42,351 bases of DNA from Escherichia phage vB_EcoM-ep3, in sequence record NC_025430.1. One strand, given 5' to 3'. The position numbers and the translations under genes were made by a program. Of the stretch, positions 3,525 to 40,973 are shown piece by piece. The notes beneath the pieces were generated by a model. That model saw only the letters and a program-made list of their open reading frames with translations. It searched no databases and was not told where the DNA came from. Within the stretch, counting starts at the first letter, position 1. Every line of letters begins with the position of its first letter.

Positions 3525-3575
3525 TATGTTACCTCGCAATTATTATTTAACATGAATTCGGATTAACTGCGGTGA

Positions 3576-3605
3576 ATTATGGCTGACGTGTTGTTATACT
3601 GTCAA
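3576..3605 (-). promoter_or_regulatory. candidate sigma70 promoter of the leftward early operon
   Basis: On the - strand: TTGACA (rc of 3600-3605), 18-nt spacer, CATAAT (rc of 3576-3581); about 45 nt upstream of the exonuclease start. Confidence 0.45.
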
Positions 3606-3662
3606 CTTATTTGTAACTAACATTGTTTAGATCAGCGTCACGCTCGCTAATCAACAAACCTT

Positions 3663-3714
3663 AGCTGTACATCAGCTATGCGTTTTTTGCACATCGCGGC
3701 TTGATTGACGTCAA
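3663..3714. promoter_or_regulatory. palindromes in the divergent intergenic region (candidate operators)
   Basis: AGCTG-N5-CAGCT at 3663-3677 and perfect 10-bp palindrome TTGACGTCAA at 3705-3714, between the two divergent promoters. Confidence 0.35.
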
Positions 3715-3730
3715 TGAACATTACTACTGG

Positions 3731-3760
3731 TTGCAACGTCGCCATGTAGTAACATACAAT
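3731..3760 (+). promoter_or_regulatory. candidate sigma70 promoter of the rightward operon
   Basis: TTGCAA (3731-3736), 18-nt spacer, TACAAT (3755-3760); about 40 nt upstream of the helicase start. Confidence 0.4.
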
Positions 3761-3797
3761 TGCGAATACTTTAAATGATGGCGAATGAACGATAATT

Positions 3798-5216
3798 ATG
3801 GGCGTAATACTTAGGGACTATCAATCCGACATTATCAATAAGGCGCGCCTTTCTATGCGGCGCAACCGCCGCGTGTTATTGCAGGCACCAACAGGCGCGG
3901 GCAAAACTGCGCTGGCGTCATACATGGCTGGGGAAACATCGGCCAAAGGCCAGCAGGTGTGGTTTATTTGCCACCGCGCTGAACTGGTATTACAGACCAG
4001 TTTGACATTCAGGAAGTTCGGCATTGACCACGGCTTTATTGCCGCAGGCTATCCCATGAACCTGCGCGCCGGGGTGCAGGTGTGCAGCATCGACACCCTG
4101 AAAAACCGCCTGCACACCCTGCCAGCTCCTAAGCTGGCCATCATGGACGAAGCGCACCACTGTGGCGCGGCTGGATGGGCGCGCGTCAACGCCTGGCTGT
4201 TCGAGAATGGCGCGTATGTAATCGGCCTGTCAGCCACGCCAAAGCGCCTGGACGGCACCGGCCTGGATGACCACTTTGATGACATCGTGTTGGGGCCATC
4301 GGTGCGCTGGCTGATGGATAACGGCCACCTGTCTGATTATCGCATGTTCTGCCCGGACATCCCTGACATGAAGGGTGTACGCAAACAGATGGGCGATTTC
4401 TCAAAAGGAGAAACCGCCGAGAAGATGGATAAGCCGAAACTAACCGGCAACATCATCAGCCACTGGCTGAAATACGCCAGGGGCATGAAAACGGTTGGCT
4501 TTGCGGTCAACATCGCGCACAGCCGCCACTTAACGCAGGCATTCATTGATTCAGGCATCCGCGCCGCGCACCTGGATGGCGGCACCGATAAGGCGGAACG
4601 CAAGCGCATCATTCAGGACTATGCCAACGACAACCTGGATGTGATTTTCAACGTGTCGCTGTTCGGTGAAGGTTTCGACCTGTCAGCTATCGCACAGACT
4701 GACGTGACGATTGACTGCCTGATTGACGCGCAGCCCACACAATCATTGTCGCTGGTTTTGCAGAAAGATGGCCGCGTGTTGCGACCGTCCAAAGGCAAAA
4801 CCGCCATCATCCTGGACCACGCAGGCAATGCGCTGCGTCATGGCTTCCCTGACGATGAACGGGAATGGTCACTGGCTGGCGATGATAGCGGCAGCAAATC
4901 CAGCAGTGCTGGTGGTCCACCGCCGCCAGTCATCTGCAAAGGCTGTTTCAACGCCATCCGCCGACCACTGCCGCCGAAGTGCCCGCACTGCCAGAAGGAA
5001 CTACAGGCCGAAGCCAAAGAAATTGAAGTGGCAGAAGGAGAACTGCGCGAAATGGACGAACGCGCCAAAGAAAGCCTGCGCGCCAAGATGAGGCGCGAGG
5101 AGGACGCTTGCAAGGATATTGGCGCACTTACTGCCCTGGCGATGAAACGCGGGCTGCCGAACCCATCAGGGTGGGCCATAGCGAAGATGGGTGGAAGAAG
5201 ATTTAAGCGCAAATAG
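3798..5216 (+). CDS. superfamily-2 DNA helicase with C-terminal zinc ribbon
   Basis: 472 aa; motif I LLQAPTGAGKT, motif II AIMDEAHH (DEAH-like), GLSATP motif III, C-terminal CKGCF...CPHCQ zinc ribbon. Confidence 0.85.
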   Translation: MGVILRDYQSDIINKARLSMRRNRRVLLQAPTGAGKTALASYMAGETSAKGQQVWFICHRAELVLQTSLTFRKFGIDHGFIAAGYPMNLRAGVQVCSIDTLKNRLHTLPAPKLAIMDEAHHCGAAGWARVNAWLFENGAYVIGLSATPKRLDGTGLDDHFDDIVLGPSVRWLMDNGHLSDYRMFCPDIPDMKGVRKQMGDFSKGETAEKMDKPKLTGNIISHWLKYARGMKTVGFAVNIAHSRHLTQAFIDSGIRAAHLDGGTDKAERKRIIQDYANDNLDVIFNVSLFGEGFDLSAIAQTDVTIDCLIDAQPTQSLSLVLQKDGRVLRPSKGKTAIILDHAGNALRHGFPDDEREWSLAGDDSGSKSSSAGGPPPPVICKGCFNAIRRPLPPKCPHCQKELQAEAKEIEVAEGELREMDERAKESLRAKMRREEDACKDIGALTALAMKRGLPNPSGWAIAKMGGRRFKRK

Positions 5217-6529: not shown

Positions 6530-6932
6530 CAAAGAACACGCGTTGCAGAACGCAATCCGCAACGCACTGGCGGGTCGCTGCCTGCTGTTTCGCGCCAACG
6601 TGGGCAAGGCGTACACCAGCAATGACGTGGTGAAGGTGCCGCGCCAGATGCCGGTTGTGATGGGGCCGCGTGACGTGCTGCTGAAAAACGCCAGGCCGTT
6701 TGACACCGGGCTGCCGCCAGGGTTTTCCGACCTGTTCGGCCTGGTCAGTGTAGAAATCACACCTGACATGGTGGGGCAGAAAGTGGCCATCTTCACCGGC
6801 CTGGAAGTCAAAGACGGTGCCCGCGTGTCACCATTGCAGCGAAACTTCATCAACGCGGTGAACGACAACGGGGGCCGCGCCGGTGTTGTGCGGTCAGTGG
6901 ATGACGCTGAAAAACTGGTGTTCGGAAAATGA
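6522..6932 (+). CDS. VRR-NUC domain nuclease
   Basis: Start trimmed to MANKEHALQNAIRNALAG; conserved-looking GFSDLFG...EVKDGARVSPLQRNFINAV region resembles VRR-NUC (PD-(D/E)XK) proteins. Confidence 0.7.
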   Translation: MANKEHALQNAIRNALAGRCLLFRANVGKAYTSNDVVKVPRQMPVVMGPRDVLLKNARPFDTGLPPGFSDLFGLVSVEITPDMVGQKVAIFTGLEVKDGARVSPLQRNFINAVNDNGGRAGVVRSVDDAEKLVFGK

Positions 6933-7648: not shown

Positions 7649-7686
7649 TTTACTTTCGGAAATGCGCCCTGTACTATGGGCGCATT
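7649..7686 (+). promoter_or_regulatory. candidate promoter with overlapping inverted-repeat operator
   Basis: TTTACT (7649-7654), 17-nt spacer, TACTAT (7672-7677); perfect 9-bp inverted repeat AATGCGCCC (7661-7669) / GGGCGCATT (7678-7686) straddles the -10; 20 nt upstream of the HTH gene. Confidence 0.45.
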
Positions 7687-7706
7687 GTTATTACGAGGCT
7701 ATTACT

Positions 7707-7895
7707 ATGGACGAAAGGACCGAACGACTTCACAACATTATGGCTGAACATGGCTTAACCTGCCGCGACGTTGGCCGTTTACTTGGGCGCACTGAACAAA
7801 CGGTGCTTATCTGGCGCTGTAAGGGCGGGAAAGTCATTCCGACCCACCAGCTTGAATTGCTTGAACTGAAACTGAACGCGCAGGCGGAAAAATGA
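7707..7895 (+). CDS. helix-turn-helix transcriptional regulator
   Basis: Trimmed to ATG 7707 (MDERTERL); HTH-like segment LTCRDVGRLLGRTEQTVLIWR; the longer ORF-track start at 7662 lies inside the palindrome. Confidence 0.55.
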   Translation: MDERTERLHNIMAEHGLTCRDVGRLLGRTEQTVLIWRCKGGKVIPTHQLELLELKLNAQAEK

Positions 7896-8134: not shown

Positions 8135-10444
8135 ATGAGTGCACAACAAAACTATAAGGATTTGACCGAACAGGAAATTGCAGAAGCACTTTCCTACATC
8201 GACGCCGGTTGCGACCGTGAAACATGGGTGCGCATGGCGATGGCGGTTAAATCGGAACTAGGCGACGGCGGTTTCACCGTCTGGAATGACTGGTCACGCC
8301 AGTCTGACAAGTACAACAGCAAAGACGCGCGCGACACCTGGAAATCAGTGAAGCGTCACGGCGGCATTGGCATTGGCACCCTGATTGGTGAGGCGCAGCA
8401 GTTCGGCTTTTCCCTGAACGATGCAGAACGCACGCCGCTGACAGCGGAAGAAATCGACGCACGCAAGCGCAAGCGCGAAGCCGAAGAAAAGGCAGAGCAG
8501 CAGCGCCGCGCCGAACGTATGGCGCAGGCAGCCGAACAGGCGCGCAACATATGGGAATCAGCCACCGAACTGGAAGGCGATGAACACCCCTATTTGCAGC
8601 GCAAGCAGGTGCAGGCGTTCGGCCTGCGCGTTGGGCGGTTCTGGACCGAAAAGCGCAGCATTGATGGTGCGCTACTGGTTCCTGTGCGTAACATTGACGG
8701 GCAGATCACCAGCTTGCAGGCCATCTTCCCGAACGAAAACCCACAGCTAGGGCGTGACCGTGATTATTTGCCTGGCGGCCAGAAGCGCGGATGCTTCCAC
8801 GTCATAGGCGGCAAGCCGACTGGCGGAAGCCCGGTTATTGTCATCTGTGAGGGCTATTCAACCGGCGCGTCAATCCACCAGGCAACCGGCTACTGCGTTG
8901 TAGTGGCGTTTGATGCCGGTAACGTTCCGACCGTGGCCAAGTTGATGCGCCAGCAGTTCGGACGCGCAACAATTGTTGTGGCAGCCGATAACGACCAGTG
9001 GCACGAAGATGGCAAGCAAAATGATGGCGTTCACTACGCGCGCCAGGCCGCAACCACATGCGGTGGCCTGCTGGTGGTTCCGAAGTTCGCCGCATTAAGC
9101 GACAAGCCGACCGACTTTAACGACCTGCACAACCTGCAAGGGCTGGCAGAAGTTAAGCGGCAGATTAACGCCGCAATACCTGAACCGGCAAATGACAACT
9201 TTCTGCCGCTGGATGCAACGGTCAACCCGTTCATGTACCCGCACATGAGCCACCAGCAAAAGCCATTAAGCACCTGGGAAAACCTGGAATGGCTGCTGGA
9301 ACAGTACGGCATCACGGCGCGATATAACGAAATCAGCAAAGATGTGGTGGTGACCATTCCAGGGCGTGACTACGGCGTTGACGCTGCGGCCAACTGTTCC
9401 CTGGCGGAAGTTTCCAGCCTGTGTGCCCGCAACGGTATGCCAAAAGGTGATGTGGGCGACTACATCAAGCTGATTGGCGTGGCCAACCGTTACAACCCGG
9501 CTGCTGATTTCATCACGTCACGGCCATGGGATGGCGTCAGCCGCATTTATGACCTGGTTGACACCCTGACCACGCCGGAAGGCTTTGACCGCAGCCTGGT
9601 GCTGATGATGGTGCGCCGCTGGCTGATTTCTGCCGTGGCTGCCGTCATGAAGCCAACCGGGTTCTGGTCCAAAGGCGTCCTGGTGTTACAGGGTGACCAG
9701 TCATTGGGGAAAACGTCCTGGTTTAAAGCACTGCTGCCGCCGACCATGCGCGACCTGGTGAAAGATGGCGCGACCATCGACCCTAGCAACAAAGACAGCG
9801 TGACCACCGCGATTGGCCACTGGATGGTTGAGCTGGGCGAACTAGATGCAACGTTCCGCAAGGCTGACATTGCCAGGCTGAAATCCTTCATCAGTTCTGA
9901 CGTGGACATGCTGCGCCGCCCTTATGACCGGCTTGAATCGAAGTACCAGCGCCGAACGGTGTTTTTTGCGTCAGTGAACCCCAAACACTTCCTGGCCGAT
10001 GACACCGGGAACGTTCGCTGGTGGACCATTCCGGTGACCGGCGTGAACTACGCCCACGACATCGACACGCAACAGTTATGGGCAGAAGTGGCGCAACTGT
10101 ACCGTGACGGCGAACGCTGGTGGCTGGATCGTGATGAAGAAGCCATGCTGGAAGGCGTCAACAAGGAACACGAATCCATTGACCCGGTAGAGGAAATGAT
10201 ACTGGCGCGCTTTGAGTGGGGCAGCGAACGCATCAGCGCCTACCGCGAACATACCGCCAGCCAGGTGTTGCAGGAAATCGGATTTGATAAGCCGAACAAG
10301 TCACAGGCCACGCATTGCAGTAACGTGCTGCGCAAGCTGACCGGGCAGGAACCGCGCAAGACGAAAAACGGGCGGTTCTTCAACCTGCCGCCGAAGGTGT
10401 TGCAGCCGGATTACCGGCGACCAGATGACAATTCACCGTTTTGA
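8135..10444 (+). CDS. DNA primase-helicase (P4 alpha-like)
   Basis: 769 aa; N-terminal primase-like region, TOPRIM-like acidic motifs (VIVICEGYSTG, VVAADNDQ), C-terminal NTPase region with Walker A QGDQSLGKTS; size and domain order match P4 alpha-type primases. Confidence 0.88.
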   Translation: MSAQQNYKDLTEQEIAEALSYIDAGCDRETWVRMAMAVKSELGDGGFTVWNDWSRQSDKYNSKDARDTWKSVKRHGGIGIGTLIGEAQQFGFSLNDAERTPLTAEEIDARKRKREAEEKAEQQRRAERMAQAAEQARNIWESATELEGDEHPYLQRKQVQAFGLRVGRFWTEKRSIDGALLVPVRNIDGQITSLQAIFPNENPQLGRDRDYLPGGQKRGCFHVIGGKPTGGSPVIVICEGYSTGASIHQATGYCVVVAFDAGNVPTVAKLMRQQFGRATIVVAADNDQWHEDGKQNDGVHYARQAATTCGGLLVVPKFAALSDKPTDFNDLHNLQGLAEVKRQINAAIPEPANDNFLPLDATVNPFMYPHMSHQQKPLSTWENLEWLLEQYGITARYNEISKDVVVTIPGRDYGVDAAANCSLAEVSSLCARNGMPKGDVGDYIKLIGVANRYNPAADFITSRPWDGVSRIYDLVDTLTTPEGFDRSLVLMMVRRWLISAVAAVMKPTGFWSKGVLVLQGDQSLGKTSWFKALLPPTMRDLVKDGATIDPSNKDSVTTAIGHWMVELGELDATFRKADIARLKSFISSDVDMLRRPYDRLESKYQRRTVFFASVNPKHFLADDTGNVRWWTIPVTGVNYAHDIDTQQLWAEVAQLYRDGERWWLDRDEEAMLEGVNKEHESIDPVEEMILARFEWGSERISAYREHTASQVLQEIGFDKPNKSQATHCSNVLRKLTGQEPRKTKNGRFFNLPPKVLQPDYRRPDDNSPF

Positions 10445-10567: not shown

Positions 10568-11545
10568 ATGGGTAGCATTGTGAATAAATACGAATTGCAT
10601 TTAGGTGATTGCCTGGAAGTTATGAAGTCTATTCCAGCCGGTAGCGTTGATTTGGTTCTGTGTGATCCGCCGTATGGCACCGCTGGCGGAATGGGAAAGG
10701 GTGAAGAACGCTATTCACGAATTGCGAACGCTGAATGGGATAACGCTATTTCTCCGCAGGCCATTTTTGAAGAATGCAACCGCGTTTTGCGAACTAACGG
10801 CGCTCTTATTCTGTTCAGCCAGGAACCTTACACCAGCAAGTTAATCACAGCGGCGCATGGAAATCTGCCTTTCAGTTATCGACTAATGTGGCTGAAAGAC
10901 CATTTCTCTAACTCGCTGTTGGTAAATAAAGCGCCTGTTTCATACTTTGAAGATTTAGTGGTGTTCTTCAAGAAATATGACACGCTGGCACAGCATCCGC
11001 TAAGGGATTATGCCAAAAAAATCATGGAATACATTGGCAGAAATATAAAGCAGATAAACACTGATTTAGGTCACAGGCGCGCGGAACACTTTTTTTATGT
11101 TGAATCAACGCAGTTCGGGCTGTGTACTGAAAAGACATACAACCAGATTATTGCGCACTATGGGCTTAGTGTGTGTGACTGGCTTATGACTTATGCTGAA
11201 ATGTTAGAAATTGACCGCAGGTTTGCCCGCAGGTTTAACCTGGCGGATGGTGCAAAATACAAATCTAACGTTCTTCAGTACAAAAAGGATTATACCGGCC
11301 TTCACCCAACACAGAAGCCGGTAGCACTGCTGGCTGACATCATCAGGACATATTCAAACCCTGGCGAAACGGTTCTAGATTTCACTATGGGGAGCGGGTC
11401 AACAGGAGTCGCCTGCATCAATGAAGGCCGTAACTTCATAGGAATTGAACTTGATGAAACCTATTTCCAGACAGCGCAGGGGCGCATAATGGAAGCAGCA
11501 GCCGCAAACGATAACCAGGCAAGTAGCAATTCTGTTGTAGCATAA
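10568..11545 (+). CDS. DNA methyltransferase (N6-adenine/N4-cytosine, beta-class)
   Basis: 325 aa; motif IV LCDPPYGT precedes motif I LDFTMGSGSTG (beta-class order); AT-rich relative to neighbours; no cognate restriction enzyme gene nearby. Confidence 0.85.
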   Translation: MGSIVNKYELHLGDCLEVMKSIPAGSVDLVLCDPPYGTAGGMGKGEERYSRIANAEWDNAISPQAIFEECNRVLRTNGALILFSQEPYTSKLITAAHGNLPFSYRLMWLKDHFSNSLLVNKAPVSYFEDLVVFFKKYDTLAQHPLRDYAKKIMEYIGRNIKQINTDLGHRRAEHFFYVESTQFGLCTEKTYNQIIAHYGLSVCDWLMTYAEMLEIDRRFARRFNLADGAKYKSNVLQYKKDYTGLHPTQKPVALLADIIRTYSNPGETVLDFTMGSGSTGVACINEGRNFIGIELDETYFQTAQGRIMEAAAANDNQASSNSVVA

Positions 11546-12749: not shown

Positions 12750-12756
12750 ACACTAA

Positions 12757-12776
12757 CCGCCTTCGGGCGGTTTTTT
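12757..12776 (+). terminator. intrinsic terminator
   Basis: CCGCC-TTCG-GGCGG hairpin followed by TTTTTT (12771-12776). Confidence 0.8.
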
Positions 12777-12838: not shown

Positions 12839-13120
12839 ATGATTGAACAAAAGCTAGACCGCATCATTGAACTGCTGGAAATCATCGCGGAAGCACAACC
12901 GAAACCGCGCGTTAGTCGTAGTCAAATCAGTGATGCAAAGAGCATTATCGTTTCGCACCGAGAACAACTGAGAGGAAAGCGCATCACGTTTGGTGAATTC
13001 TGTGAAATCATTGGCGTGGAGAATTCAAAGCAAAACCGATTAAAGTTTGGTGCTGCAATGACTGAGGCTGGAGTCAAACAATACAGAACAAAAAACGCAC
13101 GTTATTATTTATTTGCATGA
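12839..13120 (+). CDS. hypothetical protein (AT-rich cargo gene)
   Basis: Trimmed to ATG 12839 (MIEQKLDRIIELLEI) with AGAGGA 8 nt upstream; the longer ORF-track version would read through the upstream terminator; terminators on both sides. Confidence 0.5.
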   Translation: MIEQKLDRIIELLEIIAEAQPKPRVSRSQISDAKSIIVSHREQLRGKRITFGEFCEIIGVENSKQNRLKFGAAMTEAGVKQYRTKNARYYLFA

Positions 13121-13140
13121 TTACTTTTATCTATTGATAC

Positions 13141-13164
13141 AGCGCCTTAATGGCGCTTTTTTTG
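13141..13164 (+). terminator. intrinsic terminator
   Basis: AGCGCC-TTAAT-GGCGCT hairpin followed by TTTTTTTGTTT. Confidence 0.8.
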
Positions 13165-13185
13165 TTTATGAGCGACTCAATAAAA

Positions 13186-13449
13186 AAGTTGGTCACCGTA
13201 GTCACCTGGTAGTCACCGCTTAAACCAATGATATATATACGAAATGACCAAGTGACCAAGGGAGACAAGGAAATAAAAGATTTTAAAAGGTGACAAAAGC
13301 ATTGAGCGCATTAGTACCTAACAGCAACTTTATGAAAACATGGTCGAGTTGGTCACCAAGCCCATAAAAACGGCGCTTTTTCCTTAAAAATCAAGGTGAC
13401 CGAGAAAAACACCGCTTGTCTCCCTGTAGTCACCTATTTCTGGTCACCG
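13186..13449. repeat. iteron array: about 10 copies of GGTCACC/GTCACC core in both orientations (candidate replication origin)
   Basis: Copies at 13191-13197, 13201-13206, 13212-13217 (tandem GTAGTCACC), 13245-13260 (TGACCAAG x2), 13289-13294, 13351-13357 (within palindrome TTGGTCACCAA), 13395-13401, 13429-13434, 13442-13448, with an AT-rich stretch at 13221-13240; no ORF. Confidence 0.7.
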
Positions 13450-13507
13450 TTCATCTTTTCGGCTACAATCCCTATATTGACTTTTATTTATAATTATTGG
13501 GGGTTAC

Positions 13508-13942
13508 ATGGAATTACCGCGCACTGTGCAGGAAATAGCTGACGTTATTGGCCGTGAACGTGCGCTATATCTTATCGGACAACTACCAAAATTGTGGGTG
13601 CCATCGCAGCAGTACCACAAAGTAATTTTGTATGTGCCAAAGCGGATTCGGCCCAATGACCCCCTGGTGAAAATTCTTGGATGGAGTGACGCCAGCAAGA
13701 TGGTGCAGCACTTCGGTGGTGAAATGCTTCACCCGGCTAATTGCGAATACATTTACCGCCGTTTCATCCACAGCAGCATCAAGCGGATGCACAGCGAAGG
13801 AATGGACGCAAAAGCCATTGCGGAACTGCTGGACGTTTCAGAACGCACCGTGAAGCGGCACTGCACTGACAAACCCCACAAAGACACATCACCTGCAAAT
13901 GACAACACTCCCGAACGACTACTAACCGCTATGGGGCAATGA
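13508..13942 (+). CDS. Mor/C-family-like transcriptional activator
   Basis: 144 aa; GGGGG RBS; central FGGE...P segment and C-terminal HTH (MDAKAIAELLDVSERTVKRH) resemble the Mu Mor/C late-activator layout; sits immediately upstream of the lysis and structural genes. Confidence 0.55.
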   Translation: MELPRTVQEIADVIGRERALYLIGQLPKLWVPSQQYHKVILYVPKRIRPNDPLVKILGWSDASKMVQHFGGEMLHPANCEYIYRRFIHSSIKRMHSEGMDAKAIAELLDVSERTVKRHCTDKPHKDTSPANDNTPERLLTAMGQ

Positions 13943-13946: not shown

Positions 13947-14267
13947 ATGGAGTTTTTCCAGAAATTTCTAGATAACATTGGGTGGGGCATCGCTGGCATA
14001 ATGGGTGCGCTGGTTTCGCTCCCGTTCCACGATGACATCAAATCTGTAAAGGCGCGCATCTGGTTCGTGTGTACCGGTGCAATCTGCGCTTACTTCCTGA
14101 CAGACCTGGTTTCTTTGTATTTCAAAATTGATCGCGGGCTGGCTGGTAGTGTTGGCTTTCTTATGGGGGCATTTGGCGGTTCGCTGCTTGCTGCTGTCAT
14201 CCGGGCCATCAAAGCAGCAGACATTTGGCAACTCCTGAAAAACCGCTTCGGTGGGGGTAACGTATGA
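13947..14267 (+). CDS. holin
   Basis: 106 aa with three predicted hydrophobic helices and a charged C-terminus; first gene of the lysis cassette. Confidence 0.65.
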   Translation: MEFFQKFLDNIGWGIAGIMGALVSLPFHDDIKSVKARIWFVCTGAICAYFLTDLVSLYFKIDRGLAGSVGFLMGAFGGSLLAAVIRAIKAADIWQLLKNRFGGGNV

Positions 14268-14545
14268 TGCTGTTTACGGTCATCAACTTCATTTCAGTCG
14301 TCATTCTATTCCTTTGGGCCACCTGGTGCGTTTTGTATCAGGGCGTGCGTGATGGCATCGTGGGGAAAATATTGTTTTCCTGCGTTGCCATTTCTGCCCT
14401 GGCAATCATCCTGCATGACATCCAGGGCACCTACACAGCCAAACCGGCAGTCACACTTCACGCCTGCATGGCGGCGGTGGCTGTTCGTCATTTCATCGTC
14501 AACACGGTTTGGAAGCCATTTTTCTCAAAGCTGTTTCATAAGTGA
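14264..14545 (+). CDS. membrane protein (second holin/antiholin-like)
   Basis: 93 aa with 2-3 hydrophobic helices; ATGA-coupled to the holin, directly upstream of the endolysin. Confidence 0.5.
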   Translation: MMLFTVINFISVVILFLWATWCVLYQGVRDGIVGKILFSCVAISALAIILHDIQGTYTAKPAVTLHACMAAVAVRHFIVNTVWKPFFSKLFHK

Positions 14546-14553
14546 GGATTGAT

Positions 14554-15033
14554 ATGAAAATTTCATCCAATGGCCTGGCTGTTCTTAAATACTTCGAGAA
14601 TTGCCACCTTAAGGCATATCCAGATCCTGCCACCGGTGGTGCGCCGTGGACGATTGGATGGGGCCACACAGGGCCAGAAGTTAAACGCGGGCTAGTGTGG
14701 ACACAAAAGCAGGCTGATGATGCACTGGTGGCCGACCTGGCACGATTTGAACGCGCAGTTAGTGCCGCCGTTCGTGTTCCGCTGAACCAGGGCCAGTTTG
14801 ATGCGCTGGTTTCGTTCACTTACAACTTGGGTGAAGGCAATCTGAAATCCAGCACGCTGCTGAAAATGGTCAACGCTGGCAACTTTGCCGGTGCTGCTGA
14901 ACAGTTCAAACGCTGGAACAAGGCGAACGGCAAGACGATGCGCGGCCTGACCCGACGCCGTGCCGCTGAACAATGCTTGTTCCTGGGCATGGGTGGTGCG
15001 TCAGCTATTGAACGCGGTGTGGCGGCAGCATGA
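14554..15033 (+). CDS. endolysin (GH24 T4-lysozyme-like)
   Basis: Trimmed to ATG 14554 (MKISSNGL) with GAGGA RBS; FENCHLKAYPD...TIGWGHT motif typical of phage lysozymes. Confidence 0.88.
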   Translation: MKISSNGLAVLKYFENCHLKAYPDPATGGAPWTIGWGHTGPEVKRGLVWTQKQADDALVADLARFERAVSAAVRVPLNQGQFDALVSFTYNLGEGNLKSSTLLKMVNAGNFAGAAEQFKRWNKANGKTMRGLTRRRAAEQCLFLGMGGASAIERGVAAA

Positions 15034-15551
15034 TGGATAAATACGCTACTCCTGTGAAACTCATTGTGGCGATAATCATCGCCTTTGCGCTGGTATCCTT
15101 CGGGTATGTATCAGGGTTCAGCAAATCAGATCGTGAATGGCAGGCCAAATGGTCTGCCCGCGATGCTGCTGACGCACAGGCACGCCAGCAATTTACCGAA
15201 CAACAACGCCGCATTGAAATACAGCGGCAGGGGGCTATTGATGCTATTCAGGAACAAGCACAGCAGGACATTGCTACAGCACAGCGTAATGCTGCCATTG
15301 CTGCTGCTGAGTCTAAGCGCCTGCAAGACGGTATCGCAGACGCCATCACCAGACTACAGGCAGATAGCGGCAATCCCGGCGCTACCATCAGCAGCAAGAC
15401 AAGGGCCAGCACCAGCAGCCTGCTTGCCGAGTTGTTCAGAGAGATTGACGCAGCAGCGGGCATCTATGCAGCAGAGGCTGACAGGGCAAGAGCCGCAGGG
15501 CTGACCTGTGAACGGGCTTACGACGCAGTGAGAGCGACATCACAACAATGA
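15030..15551 (+). CDS. i-spanin (Rz-like)
   Basis: 173 aa; N-terminal transmembrane helix then Q/A/R-rich coiled-coil periplasmic domain; ATGA overlap with the endolysin. Confidence 0.75.
   Translation: MMDKYATPVKLIVAIIIAFALVSFGYVSGFSKSDREWQAKWSARDAADAQARQQFTEQQRRIEIQRQGAIDAIQEQAQQDIATAQRNAAIAAAESKRLQDGIADAITRLQADSGNPGATISSKTRASTSSLLAELFREIDAAAGIYAAEADRARAAGLTCERAYDAVRATSQQ
15289..15504 (+). CDS. o-spanin (Rz1-like lipoprotein) embedded in Rz in the +1 frame
   Basis: Internal ATG at 15289 gives MLPLLLLSLSAC (lipobox LSAC) followed by a proline-rich mature region; fully nested in the Rz gene. Confidence 0.65.
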   Translation: MLPLLLLSLSACKTVSQTPSPDYRQIAAIPALPSAARQGPAPAACLPSCSERLTQQRASMQQRLTGQEPQG

Positions 15552-16240: not shown

Positions 16241-18248
16241 CCCGTTTGCCAACATTGAAGGCATTGACCAGGCTATCCGGCGCGCACAACAACAATTGTT
16301 GCCGCCGCCAGACATGAAGCCGTCAGAGTGGGCGCAGGCTAATATCCGCATTCCGTCTGGCAACGCCGTGCCAGGACCGCTGCGCCTGGATAACGCGCCA
16401 TACCAGCGCGAACCAATGGACATGCTGGTTGACCCTGATTGCTACCGTGTAACGCTGATGTGGGGCGCGCAGGTGGGCAAAACCATGCTGGCACTGTGCG
16501 TGCAGGCGTACAGCGTAGCCGCTGAACCGCGCAGCCAGATGATGATGCAGCCAAGCCAGGATGACTTGCGCACCTGGCTGGAAACGAAATTCAACCCTCT
16601 GGCGGAAGAATGCGCGCCGGTAAACAACGCCATTGCCAAACCGCGTGGCCGCGACGGGGTGAACAACCAGAAAATGAAATCATACCCTGGCGGGTTCTTG
16701 ATGTTCGCCTGGTCCGGTTCGCCAAAGACCATGCGCGGGCGTTCAGCGCCGCTGATTGTATGTGACGAGGTAGACGGATATGAACGAACCAGCGAAGGGC
16801 ACCCGGTTGGCCTGCTGTGGCAGCGTTCTGCCACCTTCGGTGACCAGCGGTTTTTGCTGGAAATCAGCACCCCTACCCTTAAAGGTGAATCGTACATCGA
16901 AAAAGCGTATGAAATGGGCGACCAGCGGCACTTCTTTGTTTGCTGCCCGCACTGTGACGATCACGTTACGCTTGAATGGGAAAACGTCAAATGGGATGGC
17001 CAGCGGGAAACTGACGCGGAAACGCTGGCGGCCATCGAAGAACAGAAGCCGGAAACAGCGCACCTGTATTGCCCATCGTGCGGCGCGCAGTGGAATGACG
17101 GCGAACGGATAGCGGCTATCCGTCAGGCCGAAGAAAAGGGCGCAGGCTGGAAGGCGTCCAGGCCGTTTGAAGGGCACGCAAGCTACCACCTGAACGAACT
17201 ATACAGCACATTCCGCAAAGTACCGGCCATCGTGCGTGACTACCTGGACAAGCTGAAAACGGACGACCTGCAAACCTTCACCAACGTCAGCCTGGCGCGC
17301 ACCTGGGAAGAAGAAGGCGACAAGGTTGACCCGGATTCACTGATGGCACGCCGCGAGGAATACGCCGCGCAGGTGCCTGCTGGTGGGCTGTATATCACCG
17401 CAGGCATAGACATGCAGGTTGACCGCCTGGAATGTGAGGTGGTGGCCTGGGGCGTTGGTGAAGAATCCTGGTCATTGGGTTACCACGTCCTGTGGGGCGA
17501 CCCTCTGACGCCAGATCCGTGGGATGCGCTTGATGACCTGCTGGCGGAAACCTACCAGCACGAAACCGGCGCAGTGCTGCCGATCATGGCCGCCTGCCTG
17601 GATACCGGCGGCACCAGCGGTTACACGCAGGCCGCCTATGACTACGCCAGAGGGCGCACAGGCCGCCGCCTGTTTGCCATCAAAGGAGTGGGCGGTTGGG
17701 GTCGTCCTATCGTGGAGAAGCCGCAGCGCAAGCAATCCGGGAAGGATGCCCGCAAAGTGGATTTATTCCTGGTGGGCACCGATGAAGCCAAGCTGATAAC
17801 TGCACGCCGTTTAAACAAGACGGCACCGGGGCCAGGTTATTGCCACTTCCCTGCTGACCGCGATGAAGAATGGTTTAAGCAAATCACCGCTGAAAAGCTG
17901 ACCATGCGTTACGTGAAGGGCCAGCCAATCCGCGAGTGGAAGAAACCCGACCGGGCGCGCAACGAAGCACTGGACTGCCGCAACTATGCGCTGGCCGCGC
18001 TTAAAATCATGCAGCCGTCATTCCGCCGCCTGGCTGAAAAGTTTGGCGTAGCGAACGACAACGCGCCACCGGAACGCCGCAAGCGGCTTCCGAACGTCAA
18101 ACCCATCGTGAAACCGGTGGAAGTGCCGCAACCGGCCAATGACAAACCCCAAGAAGAAGAAAAACAGCAAGTCACAGAGACTAAGCCCATTAAACGTTCC
18201 GCCAGGGCATCCAAACGCCGTGGCGGTGGATGGGTTAGCCGCTGGTGA
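16200..18248 (+). CDS. terminase large subunit (lambda gpA-like)
   Basis: 682 aa; Walker A-like MWGAQVGKT, CPHCDDH zinc-binding-like segment; overlaps the small-subunit gene as in lambda Nu1/A. Confidence 0.9.
   Translation: MAMTKGATVTAKNNPFANIEGIDQAIRRAQQQLLPPPDMKPSEWAQANIRIPSGNAVPGPLRLDNAPYQREPMDMLVDPDCYRVTLMWGAQVGKTMLALCVQAYSVAAEPRSQMMMQPSQDDLRTWLETKFNPLAEECAPVNNAIAKPRGRDGVNNQKMKSYPGGFLMFAWSGSPKTMRGRSAPLIVCDEVDGYERTSEGHPVGLLWQRSATFGDQRFLLEISTPTLKGESYIEKAYEMGDQRHFFVCCPHCDDHVTLEWENVKWDGQRETDAETLAAIEEQKPETAHLYCPSCGAQWNDGERIAAIRQAEEKGAGWKASRPFEGHASYHLNELYSTFRKVPAIVRDYLDKLKTDDLQTFTNVSLARTWEEEGDKVDPDSLMARREEYAAQVPAGGLYITAGIDMQVDRLECEVVAWGVGEESWSLGYHVLWGDPLTPDPWDALDDLLAETYQHETGAVLPIMAACLDTGGTSGYTQAAYDYARGRTGRRLFAIKGVGGWGRPIVEKPQRKQSGKDARKVDLFLVGTDEAKLITARRLNKTAPGPGYCHFPADRDEEWFKQITAEKLTMRYVKGQPIREWKKPDRARNEALDCRNYALAALKIMQPSFRRLAEKFGVANDNAPPERRKRLPNVKPIVKPVEVPQPANDKPQEEEKQQVTETKPIKRSARASKRRGGGWVSRW
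18141..18157 (+). repeat. 17-bp motif GACAAACCCCAAGAAGA, copy 1
   Basis: Exact copy inside the terminase 3' end, in frame encoding DKPQEE; 114 bp upstream of the GTG start at 18255. Confidence 0.9.
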
Positions 18249-18794: not shown

Positions 18795-20350
18795 TGAAAC
18801 TGTGGCCATTTACCAGAAACAAGCCTGCCGAACAGGCACAACAGCCGCGCACGCGGCGTTTACCGCTTAACCGCCTGGCGTCCCGTATGTTTACCGGTGC
18901 CAGTGTTGACCGTTTTGGCACCGCGTGGGGTACACAGCCGCTGACGGCTGATGAAGTCATTACCAAAAATCAACGCATCCTGGTGGCCCGTTCCCGCGAA
19001 CAGGCCGCCAACAATGATTATGCCAAAAAGTTCCTGCGTCTGTGCCGCACAAACATTGTGGGGCCAAAAGGCGTTCTGTTGCAGGCAAAAAGCCAGGATA
19101 ACACCGGAAAACTGGACACCCTGGCGAATGAAGCCATTGAACTGGCGTTTGACGCATGGGGCAAAAAGACCAACTGTGACGTGACCGGTAAGTTGTCCTG
19201 GCGCGCCATCCAGGCCGCCTGCGTCAACAGCGTGGCCAAAGACGGTGAATTCTTCGTGCGCCTGGTGTTTGGGGCTGACGCAGGGCCGTGGGGCTTCTCG
19301 CTGCAACTGCTGGACCCGCAACGCTGTCCTGTGGACATGGTTGAAGATCGACTGCCAAACGGAAATTTCATCCGCCAGGGAATCGAGTTTAACCGATACG
19401 GGCGGCCTATCGCGTATTATTTCAGCACAGTTGATGAATCGGATGAAAACTACCGTTGGGCTGGGCGTGACTTCGTGCGCGTGCCTGCGGATGAAATCCT
19501 GCACGGTTTCTTTGATGACATGGTGGGCCAGAAACGCGGCCTGCCCTGGATGGCCACCAGCCTGTTTCGTATGCGCCACCTGGGCGGCATGGAAGAAGCC
19601 GCACTGGTCAACGCGCGAGCAGGTGCCAACAAAATGGGGTTCATCGAATGGGATGAAAACGGCGCTGGACCTGAATTCGACGATGAAGACGAACTGATCA
19701 TTGACAGTGAACCGGGTGAATTCCAGGTGCTGCCACAGGGCGCACGCATCAAAGACTGGTCACCGCAATACCCCAACGGCGAATTTGCCGTGTTCACCAA
19801 ACAGATGCTGCGCGGCATGGCTTCTGGCATGGGCGTGGCTTACAACAACCTGGCCAACGACCTGGAAGGCGTCAATTTCAGTTCCATCCGACAGGGCACG
19901 CTTGACGAGCGCGAAAGCTGGAAGGAATTGCAGGAATGGCTAATCGAAAACCTGCACCAGCCTGTTTTTGACGCCTGGCTGCCGCGCGCCCTGCTGTCTG
20001 GACGCATCACGGTGAAAGGCCGCAGCCTGAAACCGGAACGCATAGACCGTTACAGCAATATTGAATGGCAGCCACGCCGTTGGGCCTGGATTGACCCGTC
20101 ATCTGACGTGGAAGCGGCTGAAAAATCAAAAAACAACATGCTGCAATCGCCTGGCCGCATCATCCGTGAAGGTGGCAGCGACCCTGACACCGTTTGGAAG
20201 GAAACCGCTAGCGACGTGGCACGCATGATTGAGGCGTACACGCAGCACGGTATCAGCCGAGAAATGGCGGAAAAACTGGTCATGCAAAGCATGGGCATGG
20301 ACAAAACACTGTTAATGGGGCAGCAAAATGCAGAAAAACCTGCTGAATAG
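18794..20350 (+). CDS. portal protein (lambda gpB-type)
   Basis: 518 aa, directly after the terminase/gpW-like genes; size and position match lambda-type portals. Confidence 0.88.
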   Translation: MKLWPFTRNKPAEQAQQPRTRRLPLNRLASRMFTGASVDRFGTAWGTQPLTADEVITKNQRILVARSREQAANNDYAKKFLRLCRTNIVGPKGVLLQAKSQDNTGKLDTLANEAIELAFDAWGKKTNCDVTGKLSWRAIQAACVNSVAKDGEFFVRLVFGADAGPWGFSLQLLDPQRCPVDMVEDRLPNGNFIRQGIEFNRYGRPIAYYFSTVDESDENYRWAGRDFVRVPADEILHGFFDDMVGQKRGLPWMATSLFRMRHLGGMEEAALVNARAGANKMGFIEWDENGAGPEFDDEDELIIDSEPGEFQVLPQGARIKDWSPQYPNGEFAVFTKQMLRGMASGMGVAYNNLANDLEGVNFSSIRQGTLDERESWKELQEWLIENLHQPVFDAWLPRALLSGRITVKGRSLKPERIDRYSNIEWQPRRWAWIDPSSDVEAAEKSKNNMLQSPGRIIREGGSDPDTVWKETASDVARMIEAYTQHGISREMAEKLVMQSMGMDKTLLMGQQNAEKPAE

Positions 20351-22376
20351 CATCATTGGGGCCGAATTTACCCGCAAATCAGACAGCAAAACGCTGCCTG
20401 ATTTCAACAAAGGCGGGCTGGTGCGCACTATGGAAGTGCGCAAGTTTGACACCGAAAAACGCACCGTAGAACTGGCGTTTTCCTCCGAAATCGAGGTTGA
20501 ACGCTGGTACGGTATCGAAATTCTGGACCATTCGCCGGAAAGCGTGCGCCTGGACCGTCTGCGTGACGGTGGGGCGCTGCTGGTTGACCACGATTGGACT
20601 GACCAGGTGGGCGTTGTTGAATCCGTCAGCATTGACGCTGACCGCCGGGGGCGGGCTGTGGTGCGCTTTGGCCGAAGTGCACGCGCTGACGAGATTTTCC
20701 AGGACATCGTTGACGGCATTCGCAAGCATGTTTCCGTTGGCTACCGCGTGTTAGCGGCCAAGCTACAGGAAACGCGTGACGAGTGGCAGGATGTCTACCG
20801 CATCACTGAATGGGAACCGTTCGAAATTTCAATTGTGAGCGTTCCCGCTGACACCAGCGTTGGCATTGGGCGTGCGTTTGACAAACCCCAAGAAGAACAA
20901 CGCGGCATCAAATCCGATACTGCGGGCACCGTAGAGGTTCCAGCACCAAAAAAATCATTTGAGGATTCACGAATGTTAGAAAAAATTCTGCGCGACGCTG
21001 CCGGTAACCTGGTGCGCGCGATGGTAGACGAGAAAGGCAACATCACGCAGGTTCTGGAAATGCTGGAACGTGCTGGCGATGATGCGCGCAACGCTGAACA
21101 GCGTGGCCGTGAAGCGGAAAAGGCGCGCGTGCGTTCCATCACTGAAATGGGCGAGAAGTACAACGCACGTGACCTGGCTTTGAAAGCTATTGGCGAAGGC
21201 ACCACCGCCGAAGATTTCCAGCGTTCCTTGCTGGACCACCTGAACAAGCCGAAAGACCCGGCACAACCGGCTGATGACACCCGTTCCGGCAGCAAGCCGC
21301 TGTCAGAAATGCCGTCCAGCGTGATTGGTATGTCTGACAAAGACATCCGCCGCTATAGCATTTTCAACGTGGTTCGCGCGCTGGCTAACCCGAACGATGC
21401 AGCCGCACAGCGTGCCGCAGCGTTTGAAATCGAATGCAGCCACGCAGCGCAACAGCAGTATGGCCGCAGTGCAAAAGGCATCCTGATCCCTGACGATGTT
21501 CTGCGCGCATTCAACGCTGGTGGCGCACCGAACACCCCGACAGGTGCACAGACCGGTTCCAACCTGGTTGGCACTGACTTTATGGCCAGTTCGTTCATCG
21601 ACCTGCTGCGCCCGCGTACCACCATCATGCGCCTGGCGCGTACTATGGGCGGCCTGGTTGGCAACGTTGAAATTCCGAAACAGACTGGCGGCGCTACTGC
21701 CTACTGGATTGGTGAAGGTGATGACGCAACCGAAACCACGCCGACCATCGGCCAGCTTAGTTTGTCACCGAAAACCGTTGCGGCTTACACCGACATTACC
21801 CGCCGCCTGCTGATGCAATCCACCCCGGATGCGGAAGCTATCGTGCGCGGTGACCTGGTGGCAGCTATCGCGCAGGCGATTGATTACGCTGGCTACTACG
21901 GCACCGGCACCAGCAACCAGCCGCTGGGTCTGGCGAACTACACCGGCATTAATGCGGTAGACTTCGCAGCAGCCAACCCGACTTATGCGGAACTGGTGCA
22001 GATGGAAACCGAAATCGCGGCTGACAACGCTGACGTGAACAACATGGCATATGTGCTGAACGCGCGTGGCCGTGGTGCAGCGAAAACCACGCCGAAGTTT
22101 GCCAGTGGTTCTTCCGTGGCTGACGCTGGCGTGATTTGGGAACCGGGCAACACCCTGAACGGTTACCGCGCCGAAGTTACCAACCAGGTTCAGGATGGTG
22201 ACGTGTTCTTTGGCAACTTCGCTGACTTGGTTGTTGGTATGTGGGGCGGCCTGGACATGACGGTTGACCCGTATAGCCTGAGCAAATCCGGTGGCCTGCG
22301 CATCGTGGTATTCCAGGACGTGGATTTTGCGGTGCGCCGCGTTGAATCCTTCTGCCTGGGCCGCAACGCAGCATAA
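20328..22376 (+). CDS. prohead protease-scaffold-major capsid fusion protein (HK97-fold)
   Basis: 682 aa; N-terminal about 200 aa prohead-protease-like, central charged coiled-coil, C-terminal about 350 aa HK97-like major capsid region; internal in-frame ATG at 20973 with GAGGA RBS. Confidence 0.85.
   Translation: MQKNLLNSIIGAEFTRKSDSKTLPDFNKGGLVRTMEVRKFDTEKRTVELAFSSEIEVERWYGIEILDHSPESVRLDRLRDGGALLVDHDWTDQVGVVESVSIDADRRGRAVVRFGRSARADEIFQDIVDGIRKHVSVGYRVLAAKLQETRDEWQDVYRITEWEPFEISIVSVPADTSVGIGRAFDKPQEEQRGIKSDTAGTVEVPAPKKSFEDSRMLEKILRDAAGNLVRAMVDEKGNITQVLEMLERAGDDARNAEQRGREAEKARVRSITEMGEKYNARDLALKAIGEGTTAEDFQRSLLDHLNKPKDPAQPADDTRSGSKPLSEMPSSVIGMSDKDIRRYSIFNVVRALANPNDAAAQRAAAFEIECSHAAQQQYGRSAKGILIPDDVLRAFNAGGAPNTPTGAQTGSNLVGTDFMASSFIDLLRPRTTIMRLARTMGGLVGNVEIPKQTGGATAYWIGEGDDATETTPTIGQLSLSPKTVAAYTDITRRLLMQSTPDAEAIVRGDLVAAIAQAIDYAGYYGTGTSNQPLGLANYTGINAVDFAAANPTYAELVQMETEIAADNADVNNMAYVLNARGRGAAKTTPKFASGSSVADAGVIWEPGNTLNGYRAEVTNQVQDGDVFFGNFADLVVGMWGGLDMTVDPYSLSKSGGLRIVVFQDVDFAVRRVESFCLGRNAA
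20880..20896 (+). repeat. 17-bp motif GACAAACCCCAAGAAGA, copy 2
   Basis: Exact copy inside the capsid fusion ORF, same reading frame (DKPQEE); 93 bp upstream of the internal start at 20973. Confidence 0.9.
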
Positions 22377-25181: not shown

Positions 25182-25198
25182 GACAAACCCCAAGAAGA
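25182..25198 (+). repeat. 17-bp motif GACAAACCCCAAGAAGA, copy 3
   Basis: Exact copy in the intergenic gap 3 nt after the gpV stop and in gpV's frame; followed by hairpin ATGCGGGC-ATCATT-GCCCGCAT (25211-25232) that holds the gpW start; 49 bp upstream of gpW. Confidence 0.9.
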
Positions 25199-25231
25199 TA
25201 AACCATCACCCATGCGGGCATCATTGCCCGC

Positions 25232-25570
25232 ATGAAAGGAACAAACGCGGCCACAGGCGCGCCGCTGGATGGTTTAGACCATCTGCGCCAATCCATAAGA
25301 GACATACTCACGACGCCAATTGGCACGCGAGTGATGCGCCGCGACTACGGCAGCCGGTTGCCCTACCTGGTTGATGCACCGATGAACCGCAGCACGCTGC
25401 TGGACCTGTACGCAGCGACTGCGGAAGCACTGGAAGCCTGGGAACCACGCATCAGCGTGCAGCAGGTGACAGCAACATCAGCAGAACCAGGACGCGTGGA
25501 ATTGTCCATTACCGGCGAATACCTGCCAGACGGCAAACAAATAACAATTGACGGCATAGTGGTGACATAA
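25232..25570 (+). CDS. baseplate assembly protein W (P2 gpW-like)
   Basis: 112 aa; LDHLRQSIRDILTTPIGTRVMRRDYGS closely follows the P2 gpW pattern as I recall it. Confidence 0.88.
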   Translation: MKGTNAATGAPLDGLDHLRQSIRDILTTPIGTRVMRRDYGSRLPYLVDAPMNRSTLLDLYAATAEALEAWEPRISVQQVTATSAEPGRVELSITGEYLPDGKQITIDGIVVT

Positions 25571-31379: not shown

Positions 31380-31401
31380 GCCCGCTTCGGCGGGCTTTTT
31401 T
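31380..31401 (+). terminator. intrinsic terminator
   Basis: GCCCGC-TTCG-GCGGGC hairpin followed by TTTTTT. Confidence 0.8.
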
Positions 31402-31404: not shown

Positions 31405-31421
31405 GACAAACCCCAAGAAGA
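31405..31421 (+). repeat. 17-bp motif GACAAACCCCAAGAAGA, copy 4
   Basis: Exact copy 4 nt after the terminator T-run, intergenic; 89 bp upstream of the tail sheath start; followed by inverted repeat ACTGTG..CACAGT (31456-31469). Confidence 0.9.
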
Positions 31422-31493
31422 AGCCACGCACGGTTCCTGCGACCATCACACTGCGAATTTTCACTGTGTGCACAGTTAATAGGAAACCGAATA

Positions 31494-40240: not shown

Positions 40241-40548
40241 AAGGCGAACTGAAAGCCGGTGGCCTGGCGCTGGTGATTGGTAACAACCCGCACGCTGGGA
40301 AGTGTGTAACGCTGGTTCGTTTTGTAACCCCTGGCCAGATGTTTAACATTCCTACAGGCGGAGAGACTTTCTTATCTCTGAAAGCCGATGCCTCATGGTT
40401 GGTGACCGGAAATGTTTATCCAAAAGGATGTGAACATGATCAAGGCTGGTCGCTTTTTGCGCCAAGATGCCTGCTGCCAATCGACGGCGACGACCACCAG
40501 GAACAGGAACAACTAACCAAAGACAAACCAGCCGAACTGACGGCGTAA
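40237..40548 (+). CDS. hypothetical protein
   Basis: 103 aa; ATGA-coupled to the ParB-like gene. Confidence 0.45.
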   Translation: MKGELKAGGLALVIGNNPHAGKCVTLVRFVTPGQMFNIPTGGETFLSLKADASWLVTGNVYPKGCEHDQGWSLFAPRCLLPIDGDDHQEQEQLTKDKPAELTA

Positions 40549-40557
40549 GGGGCATAT

Positions 40558-40968: not shown

Positions 40969-40973
40969 CACAC

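Follow-up and report, generated by a model that had tools for sequence, protein, structure and literature searches.

The open reading frame (ORF) at 13508-13942 of the window (the whole stretch of DNA analysed here, 42,351 nucleotides of Escherichia phage vB_EcoM-ep3, sequence record NC_025430.1) probably encodes the single late-gene activator of this phage. Judged from sequence comparisons, the protein would be a divergent relative of the Mor and C proteins of phage Mu that activates the lysis and virion genes by binding a short box at five promoters. Phage late activators of the Mor/C type are textbook, and nothing here is surprising in kind. The identification as a late activator is itself already known, as relatives are so labelled in public records. 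What is undescribed, as far as the searched literature shows, is the predicted regulon, the fixed geometry between the box and the -10 hexamer, the predicted promoter embedded in the activator gene and the asymmetric site.

In the scheme that we propose, early transcription would stop at terminators at 12755 and 13141. The activator would be made from its own sigma-70-type promoter, possibly gated by an iteron-binding protein, and would bind the box (about -49 to -31) at five promoters. There it would recruit or stabilise the host sigma-70 RNA polymerase and replace the -35 contact, as Mor and C do. In this way the genes for lysis, terminase, portal, head, baseplate and tail would all be transcribed, together with the capsid, which would be read from an internal start. 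The iterons would be bound by another protein (a replication or early factor), which may time the synthesis of the activator.

The putative activator gene and its surroundings

The window comes from an Iiscvirinae/Jilinvirus-like myophage. Close to it are Salmonella phage PT1 and the Escherichia phages HeidiAbel_Bas97 (hereafter Bas97), Alux-21, ECOO78 and ECO1230-10, with 87-97% DNA identity in patches, and the activator is 98.6% identical to the PT1 copy and 95.8% identical to the Bas97 copy. Arya, classed in the Iiscvirinae (genus Jilinvirus), is a more distant relative. Phages of the Iiscvirinae type are called poorly characterised in the literature, and a literature search found no experimental study of transcription in this group. 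A common gene order is found in all relatives examined: replication genes (a helicase and a primase), a few small ORFs, a non-coding region of roughly 390 bp (387 bp in the window) and the activator gene. On its 3' side follow the lysis genes (two holins, an endolysin and a spanin), the terminase, and the genes for head, baseplate and tail. All lie on the same strand. An earlier, sequence-only reading had placed the ORF between an iteron array and the lysis and structural genes, and this position is correct: the iterons (13192-13448) lie upstream, and the genes for holins, endolysin, spanin, terminase and virion lie downstream. The features of the region are:

12755-12772, second terminator-like hairpin
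13141-13157, + strand, terminator-like hairpin with a T-run, parting the upstream genes from the activator gene (sequence)
13192-13448, unstranded, iteron array of eight GTCACC/GGTGAC words (word count)
13441-13469, + strand, putative activator promoter, sigma-70-like, TGGTCA-17-TACAAT (sequence and conservation)
13508-13942, + strand, activator coding sequence, PHROG 836 (ORF, PHROG 836, homologues and hhalign)
13694-13873, + strand, codons 63-122, the Mor/C-homologous part with helix, FGG beta-linker and HTH (hhalign, Pfam HTH and AlphaFold2)
13947-15551, + strand, lysis cassette with two holin-like ORFs, endolysin and spanin (ORFs, and the Bas97 annotation with 93-96% identical genes)

The activator gene is an ATG-initiated ORF on the + strand that encodes 144 amino acids, and its ATG is preceded by a Shine-Dalgarno-like GGGGG run. 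The stop-to-stop frame opens at 13481, so that the ORF has no possible longer in-frame start. The lysis cassette begins 5 nt past the stop codon. Searching 5.8 billion proteins gave 183 homologues at E<=1e-3 (best E 2e-84), and tblastn located orthologues in 33 phage records, covering 84-100% of the protein. Given these homologues, and the same genomic position in all sequenced relatives, the ORF is a real gene. Orthologues that belong to PHROG 836 occur in Bas97 (gp56), ECO1230-10, ECOO78, PT1, Arya (gp38), Persinger (gp60), Mano, Mica, PPpW-3 and FoX. Public labels on the relatives read 'late transcriptional activator' or, in the case of Mano, 'Mor-like transcription factor', and come from automatic or homology-based annotation. 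No second member of its family is encoded in the window. We also considered a protein of the Ogr/Delta type, such as is annotated in MQ-4, as the late regulator and rejected it: no Ogr/Delta homologue is present in the window.

The description of the product as a 144-aa protein with a C-terminal HTH is borne out by the ORF, by Pfam and by the predicted structure. Pfam HTH_7 matches residues 90-117 (24.0 bits against a cut-off of 23.8), while GerE, Sigma70_r4_2 and HTH_23 fall just under their cut-offs on residues 90-121. Generic HTH matches were all that the Pfam and NCBIfam scans returned, with no match to Mor. The HTH lies at about residues 97-120, and its recognition helix at about 112-120. 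AlphaFold2, run on a 45-sequence alignment, predicts helices at residues 5-14, 16-25, 52-57, 59-69, 80-96, 101-108 and 112-120, short strands at 28-31, 36-39 and 72-73, and a disordered tail at 121-144. The mean pLDDT is 83.5, and the C-terminal helices (80-96, 101-108 and 112-120) reach about 87-90. Residues 63-122 have a pI of 8.7, which makes the C-terminal HTH domain basic.

Two other views of the protein were tried and rejected. A sigma factor of the Sigma-70/ECF type would be expected to do better than the sub-threshold region-4 matches that we obtained (Sigma70_r4_2, 23.2 against 25.7 bits; Sigma70_ECF, E 0.25); moreover, the protein has nothing like region 2 and, at 144 aa, is too short. 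An internal duplication of the helix-strand unit (residues 1-50 against 51-144) reached a probability of 6% and is unsupported.

Kinship with Mor and C of phage Mu

Profile comparisons indicate homology of the activator to Mor and C in the linker and HTH; the rest of the protein is either divergent or unrelated. The relationship that they reveal is remote and limited to residues 63-122. On this evidence, the activator family is a sister family to Mor/C rather than a member of the Pfam Mor family.

The link runs through PHROG 836 ('late transcriptional activator'). The activator matches this profile at E 1.1e-30 (107 bits), with residues 2-130 falling on profile positions 11-127 of 133. Mu Mor and C (taken from NC_000929) belong to PHROG 532, yet they also match PHROG 836 at 1.2e-10 and 2.1e-11, respectively, via their C-terminal 70 residues. 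PHROG 836 therefore bridges the activator and Mor/C families. A search with Mu Mor alone gave only nine close relatives. The Mor/C alignment was built from an exhaustive search: a Mor+C profile run against 1.84 billion representatives returned 2,838 matches at E<=1e-3, and 115 of them were aligned. When the 45-sequence activator family was compared with these 115 Mor/C relatives by hhalign, residues 63-122 aligned with Mor 58-116 at 95.4% probability (E 2e-8), and the C-terminal part alone reached 96.2% (E 2.6e-9). The aligned stretch comprises the second dimerisation helix, the GG-containing beta-linker and the HTH. Among 45 diverse relatives of the activator, 16 match Pfam Mor at E<=0.1; one of them, P0119, is alone in passing the gathering score (26.2 against 24.9 bits, on profile positions 19-93 of 107).

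Other comparisons gave no such link. The activator has no match to Pfam Mor (PF08765) even at E<=1, an HMMER profile of the 115 Mor/C relatives hit none of the window's ORFs at E<=10, and hhalign against the single Mor or C sequence was too weak (E 0.011 and 0.081). Against the PDB, the activator's sequence profile found LuxR/NarL-type HTH proteins and a designed repeat protein, with neither Mor nor C among them. The Mor-family search that the sequence-only reading had named as a check is thus positive by profile-profile hhalign and by PHROG 836, and negative by Pfam Mor and the HMMER profile.

The N-terminal part is a different matter. Residues 1-50 have no significant similarity to the Mor/C profile (5% probability), and the N-terminal 62 residues have a pI of 9.6 in the activator compared to 4.05 in Mor and 5.46 in C. 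In Mor/C, the N-terminal domain consists of two helices that form a four-helix bundle in the dimer. A global alignment, of low confidence, is collinear from Mor residue 26, pairs LPRTVQEIADVI with WPRSVVDLIDVL of C and leaves an insertion of 26-30 residues. The layout resembling Mor/C that had been proposed for the protein stands for the linker and HTH and for the position of the gene before the lysis genes, and does not extend to the N-terminal third, which is basic and not detectably Mor-like.

The linker itself is only partly in agreement. Its invariant residues in Mor/C are G, G, Y, P and G, at C residues 70, 71, 75, 77 and 79 (PMC2582627), and the window's protein reads F69-G70-G71-E-M-L-H75-P76-A-N-C79. 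The GG pair is in register with Mor/C (G71 is invariant in the family and G70 is present in 90% or more). Elsewhere in the linker, Y has given way to H, at a position that varies in the family, P is shifted by one position, and the last G has become a C that is invariant. The inserted hairpin contains a second Y-V-P motif, ILYVPK (residues 40-45), in which Y42 and P44 do not vary.

The box and the predicted late promoters

The candidate target of the activator is a 17-bp motif, GACAAACCCCAAGAAGA, which has exact copies at 18141, 20880, 25182 and 31405 and a copy with two mismatches at 13868 (0.38 matches are expected in the window). Every copy is on the + (late) strand and precedes a gene start or an internal start by 50-115 bp. 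Each is followed by a -10-like hexamer, with no -35 hexamer, and the five predicted promoters are:

13868-13909, + strand, predicted late promoter 1 (lysis genes): box GACAAACCCCACAAAGA with 2 mismatches, 19-nt spacer, -10 AACACT at 13904-13909
18141-18182, + strand, predicted late promoter 2: exact box, -10 GAGACT at 18177
20880-20921, + strand, predicted late promoter 3: exact box, -10 GATACT at 20916
25182-25224, + strand, predicted late promoter 4: exact box, 20-nt spacer, -10 CATCAT at 25219
31405-31446, + strand, predicted late promoter 5: exact box, -10 GACCAT at 31441

The first box falls within the activator's own 3' end, and the holin ATG comes 80 bp later. The large terminase gene has the second box in its 3' end, ahead of the genes for head-tail joining and the portal. 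The third is inside a 682-aa capsid fusion ORF, where an in-frame internal ATG at 20973, about 95 bp further on, has a GAGGA ribosome-binding site. The fourth is in the intergenic gap before a baseplate W-like gene, whose ATG is 7 nt past the -10 hexamer. The fifth follows directly on a terminator hairpin (31381-31401) and precedes the tail sheath gene.

The arrangement is shared with the relatives. A box is found at the five equivalent positions in Bas97 (with identical sequence), in MQ-4 (GACAAACCCAAAGAAGA) and in Persinger (GGAAATCCCACAAGAGGAA). In Arya, four of the same five positions have GACACCCCGCACGAAGA exactly and the other has a degenerate form. The pre-lysis box is the degenerate one, with 2 mismatches in the window and 5 in Arya. 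No copy of the box was found on the opposite strand in the window, Bas97, Arya, MQ-4 or Persinger. Scanning IMG/VR with the family alignment added 80 loci. Among the loci with enough downstream DNA, about twenty have a 16-19-mer repeated two or three times, typically in the activator 3' end, 4-6 kb downstream and about 2.8 kb further; the density in about 20 such viral contigs is three copies per 10 kb.

Aligning 84 instances from 27 genomes gives the box consensus GGAAA(A/T)CCCnCAAGAGGAA; C8 and G16 of the 19-mer are invariant. In 80 of these 84, an nAnnnT hexamer begins exactly 18 nt past the 19-mer; at the other 39 offsets tested, such a hexamer occurs in 0-7 instances, save for one offset with 23. 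The consensus of the hexamer, (G/C)AnA(A/C)T, keeps both key positions of the sigma-70 -10 element. With the hexamer placed at -12 to -7, the box would extend from about -49 to -31 and take the place of the -35 element. In Mu, the late promoters likewise have a -10 hexamer and no -35, the region required at Plys is 19 bp long (-52 to -34), and the C site is centred at -43.5 (PMC2582627). In layout, as read from the DNA, the predicted box promoters share this architecture.

The box is 17-19 bp long and asymmetric. For the window box, the best self-complementarity is 2 of 6 pairs, a value reached by 99.8% of shuffles; the Arya box gives 3 of 9 (reached by 97%) and the family consensus 4 of 7 (reached by 20%). 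With an asymmetric box and an N-terminal domain unlike that of Mor, the oligomeric state and DNA geometry are probably unlike the Mor/C dimer or tetramer. It is possible, and we put this forward as a tentative idea more likely wrong than right, that these activators are a re-engineered branch of Mor/C. In such a branch, the GG linker and HTH would have been kept, and a basic N-terminal module with a second Y-V-P beta-strand would replace the acidic dimerisation domain. A single chain would do the work of two Mor chains and would recognise, in a single orientation, a fully asymmetric 19-bp box at each of the five late promoters, with one of these promoters in the activator's own codons and the tail serving as a DNA signal.

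The predicted promoter within the activator gene bears on how the protein itself is read. The disordered tail contains the most conserved motif outside the fold, E-x-P-Q-E-E...A-N-D-N in the family alignment, with N131, D132 and N133 nearly invariant. In the window, the DNA of predicted late promoter 1 encodes the conserved tail D-K-P-H-K-D...N-D-N-T. At the DNA level, PQEE corresponds to the box and (N)DN(x) to the -10 hexamer of the pre-lysis promoter. As the same DNA words recur in intergenic DNA, the simplest reading is that the tail is conserved since it is a promoter, and that its codons would double as the box and -10 hexamer for the lysis operon.

What reads the box

The sequence-only reading had taken the protein as the most likely late activator, which the computational evidence supports, and had named the 17-bp motif or the iterons as its candidate targets. 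The first of these survives, as the upstream box of five promoter-like sites, and the second loses ground, as the iteron word varies among relatives without relation to the activator. From this pattern, the 17-mer is the favoured predicted target and the iterons are disfavoured.

Across relatives, the boxes tend to differ more where the activators have diverged further (rho is 0.54 with residues 1-119 and 0.21 with only the HTH, over 171 pairs that are not independent). In a partial Mantel test, the HTH and the N-terminal region both correlate with the box, the N-terminal region almost as well. The co-variation is therefore not decisive, as all parts of the activator correlate with the box in the way that shared ancestry alone would give. 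Phages that share a box share a recognition helix (L026/L042, L037/L039 and L028/L035). The helix TEQxVRF goes with GAAGAACCC..., SRETVNA with (G/A)CAGAACCC..., DRHVRN with GGAAA...GAGGAA and SERTVKRH with TGACA...GAAGA. The window type (TGACAAACCCC...) and the Arya type (TGACACCCCGC...) have an identical recognition helix and differ at five central box positions, so other residues of the activator would have to read the centre. The linker (residues 70-79) is a candidate reader of these central bases. In the Mu C complex, the linker inserts into the groove (bioRxiv 10.1101/2025.05.02.651988).

The iterons form two clusters around a stretch of 33-41% GC. In the whole 42-kb window, GTCACC/GGTGAC occurs 56 times against 18.7 expected. 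The -35 hexamer of the activator promoter overlaps the last iteron, which suggests a link in timing to the synthesis of the activator. Different genera keep the TACAAT element and the general layout, but the iteron word varies freely (GGTCACC, GGTAAC, GGGACAA, AGTGAC, GTTACA and others). As read from the DNA, the array is probably an origin-like or early-regulatory region bound by a protein other than the activator. A CI repressor was rejected as that protein, since the window keeps its iterons and has no CI homologue. Autoregulation through a box-like sequence just after the -10 of the activator promoter was also rejected; such a sequence is seen in a few relatives and is not significant overall.

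Other explanations of the same sites have to be weighed against a Mor/C-like activator that reads the box. The strongest of them, though we think it improbable, accepts the box promoters as real and has them read by another phage DNA-binding protein or a host factor, with the ORF regulating, for example, early shut-off or lysis timing. Further HTH proteins are indeed encoded in the window, and a 77-aa early HTH protein (7662-7892) and a ParB-like protein (39365-40240) are the candidates. A separate reader would also account for the window and Arya having one recognition helix and different central box bases, and the near-equal correlation of the N-terminal region leaves room for phylogeny as the cause of the co-variation. 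Against this, the only characterised members of the homologous family are promoter-proximal activators of exactly such promoters, phages with a common box have a common helix, and nearly all relatives keep the gene adjacent to the lysis genes and a box embedded within it. We give somewhat less credit still to the view that the protein binds the iterons, as an origin-binding or autoregulatory factor at 13192-13448, and is not a late activator. This view can point to a gene that sits immediately 3' of the array with the last iteron over its -35, and to the fact that iteron word and recognition helix are each the same in the window as in Arya, whereas MQ-4 differs in both. A wider comparison does not bear it out: in the 19 genomes that have a clear iteron, no correlation is seen between iteron distance and activator sequence (rho -0.01 for the whole protein and -0.06 for the HTH). 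One iteron word, GTCCCA, occurs with four different recognition helices (L026, L045, L073 and L039), and one helix, DRHVRN, occurs with different iterons. Moreover, iterons around an AT-rich stretch by primase/helicase genes resemble an origin served by a replication protein.

The 17-19-mer could also be something other than a promoter element, either an RNA-level signal (processing, stability or antitermination) or a recombination or packaging signal, which we regard as very unlikely. Such a signal would be in keeping with copies that are all on the transcribed strand, three of them within coding sequence in one reading frame, and with a purine-rich box that contains GAGG in most relatives. 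Yet the hexamers, which keep one distance from the box in 80 of 84 instances whether the DNA is coding or not, are the signature of a sigma-70 -10 element; one copy stands directly between a terminator and the sheath gene; and the ATG of the W-like gene is exactly 7 nt past the hexamer in four genera. Hence, the reading that we prefer remains a Mor/C-related activator acting at box-plus-(-10) promoters.

Taken in this way, the analysis provides a wiring diagram for late expression in the Iiscvirinae, a subfamily with a member (HeidiAbel/Bas97) in the BASEL collection: one activator, one sigma-70 promoter feeding it and five predicted box-plus-(-10) promoters, each with a predicted start site. 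The embedded promoter would explain a conserved 'disordered tail' and calls for caution in reading protein conservation in compact genomes. The Mor/C class would be extended beyond transposable Mu-like phages, to a variant with another N-terminal domain and an asymmetric predicted target, and this variant is relevant to the symmetric tetramers in which Mor and C were recently found to bind.

Close known systems include the PHROG 836 orthologues of Iiscvirinae and related phages. These are 40-99% identical, have the gene order and box positions of the window and do not differ from it in kind. Others are T4 MotA/AsiA and P2 Ogr/P4 Delta, which also replace the sigma-70 -35 contact at promoters that keep a -10 and which have no sequence relationship to the activator. 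The MotA box is centred at about -30 and MotA needs AsiA, and Ogr/Delta are zinc-finger proteins that act at a TGT-N12-ACA dyad near -55.

A further comparison is with Mor and C of Mu (PF08765, PHROG 532; structures 1RR7 and 9L0X), which are 129-140 aa long against 144 aa here. In Mu, these proteins activate through contacts with the alpha-CTD, sigma region 4 and the beta flap of the sigma-70 RNA polymerase (bioRxiv 10.1101/2025.05.02.651988). At the sequence level, the activator has in common with them the linker/HTH homology, the basic C-terminal HTH and the promoter architecture. The order of helix, GG beta-linker and C-terminal HTH is the same, with profile similarity over about 60 residues. 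As with C, which precedes lys in Mu, the gene is directly 5' of the lysis genes. The predicted targets also have a -10 without a -35 and an upstream element of roughly 19 bp that overlaps the -35 region, and the number of late promoters per genome is four in Mu and five, as predicted, here. On the other hand, a match to the Pfam Mor model, the acidic N-terminal domain and a dyad-symmetric site are all absent. Unlike Mor/C, the activator lacks the acidic N-terminal 25 residues and has an extra beta-hairpin segment of roughly 26-30 residues, and its box is asymmetric where Mor/C sites are imperfect dyads. Finally, a single activator would stand here in place of the Mor-to-C cascade, with one of its predicted target promoters embedded, unlike in Mu, in its own coding sequence.

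Predicted promoter sequences within coding DNA

The tail motif of the activator family, E-x-P-Q-E-E...A-N-D-N, is conserved though disordered. In the activator of the window (144 aa, Mor/C-related, a putative late-gene regulator), this tail, at codons 121-136 of the gene (13868-13915), coincides base for base with the box, that is, the 17-19-bp motif predicted to be the activator's target, and the -10 hexamer of the predicted lysis-gene promoter. This stretch of coding DNA appears to be in dual use, as protein tail and as predicted promoter. The boxes at 13868, 18141 and 20880 all lie within coding DNA and share one reading frame, in which they translate as D-K-P-(Q/H)-(E/K)-(E/D), although the proteins concerned (activator, large terminase, capsid fusion) are unrelated to each other.

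The capsid fusion is the 682-aa 'major head protein' ORF (20328-22376), which holds an internal predicted promoter (20880-20975 stretch). An in-frame ATG with a GAGGA ribosome-binding site follows at 20973, about 50 nt past the predicted start site of that promoter, and the related phage Arya also keeps this arrangement. The layout suggests that a C-terminal 467-aa product would be made separately, beside the full-length fusion.

Start of the baseplate W-like gene

In four genera, the baseplate W-like gene starts with an ATG exactly 7 nt past the predicted -10 hexamer, and a Shine-Dalgarno sequence is absent before this ATG. The transcript from the predicted promoter may therefore be leaderless.

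Predicted -10 hexamer and ATG of the W-like gene
25219-25234, window
near 9570-9587, Arya (L004)
near 9633-9648, MQ-4 (L005)
near 6555-6571, Persinger (L006), reverse-complement coordinates

Iteron array and activator promoter

Upstream of the activator, a short way past the primase and helicase module, GTCACC/GGTGAC words form two clusters, one on each side of an AT-rich core (13121-13507). In its layout this iteron array resembles a replication origin or an early control region. Among related phages the word varies (GGTCACC, GGTAAC, GGGACAA, AGTGAC, GTTACA), and its changes do not follow those of the activator. The activator's own promoter has a -35 that overlaps with one of the iterons.

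Right after the TACAAT of this promoter, some relatives (L028, L039, L045, L058) carry 10-13 nt resembling the core of their own box, with a 10/13 match in L028. This hints at autoregulation of the activator, but the resemblance is weak in the window (8/13; 13464-13490) and has no significance over the whole set of relatives.

Neighbouring ORFs and comparison with HeidiAbel_Bas97

A 93-aa ORF (MIEQKLDRIIELLEII...; 12839-13120), for which no family match was found, stands alone between terminator-like hairpins (12755-12772 and 13141-13157); the related phage Bas97 has no counterpart at the same position. The two phages also differ in the stretch containing a 325-aa ORF (10568-11545), in which LVLCDPPYGT forms a DPPY motif of the kind characteristic of N6-adenine/N4-cytosine DNA methyltransferases.

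Compared with Bas97, the window lacks the CI-like repressor and the integrase, whose sole trace is a 21-aa remnant at 41048-41110 (window regions 40548-41600 and 3539-3798), whereas a homologue of the 77-aa early 'transcriptional repressor' is retained (7662-7892, 97% identity). The phage has the appearance of a virulent one derived from temperate ancestors, a derivation already discussed for its genus.
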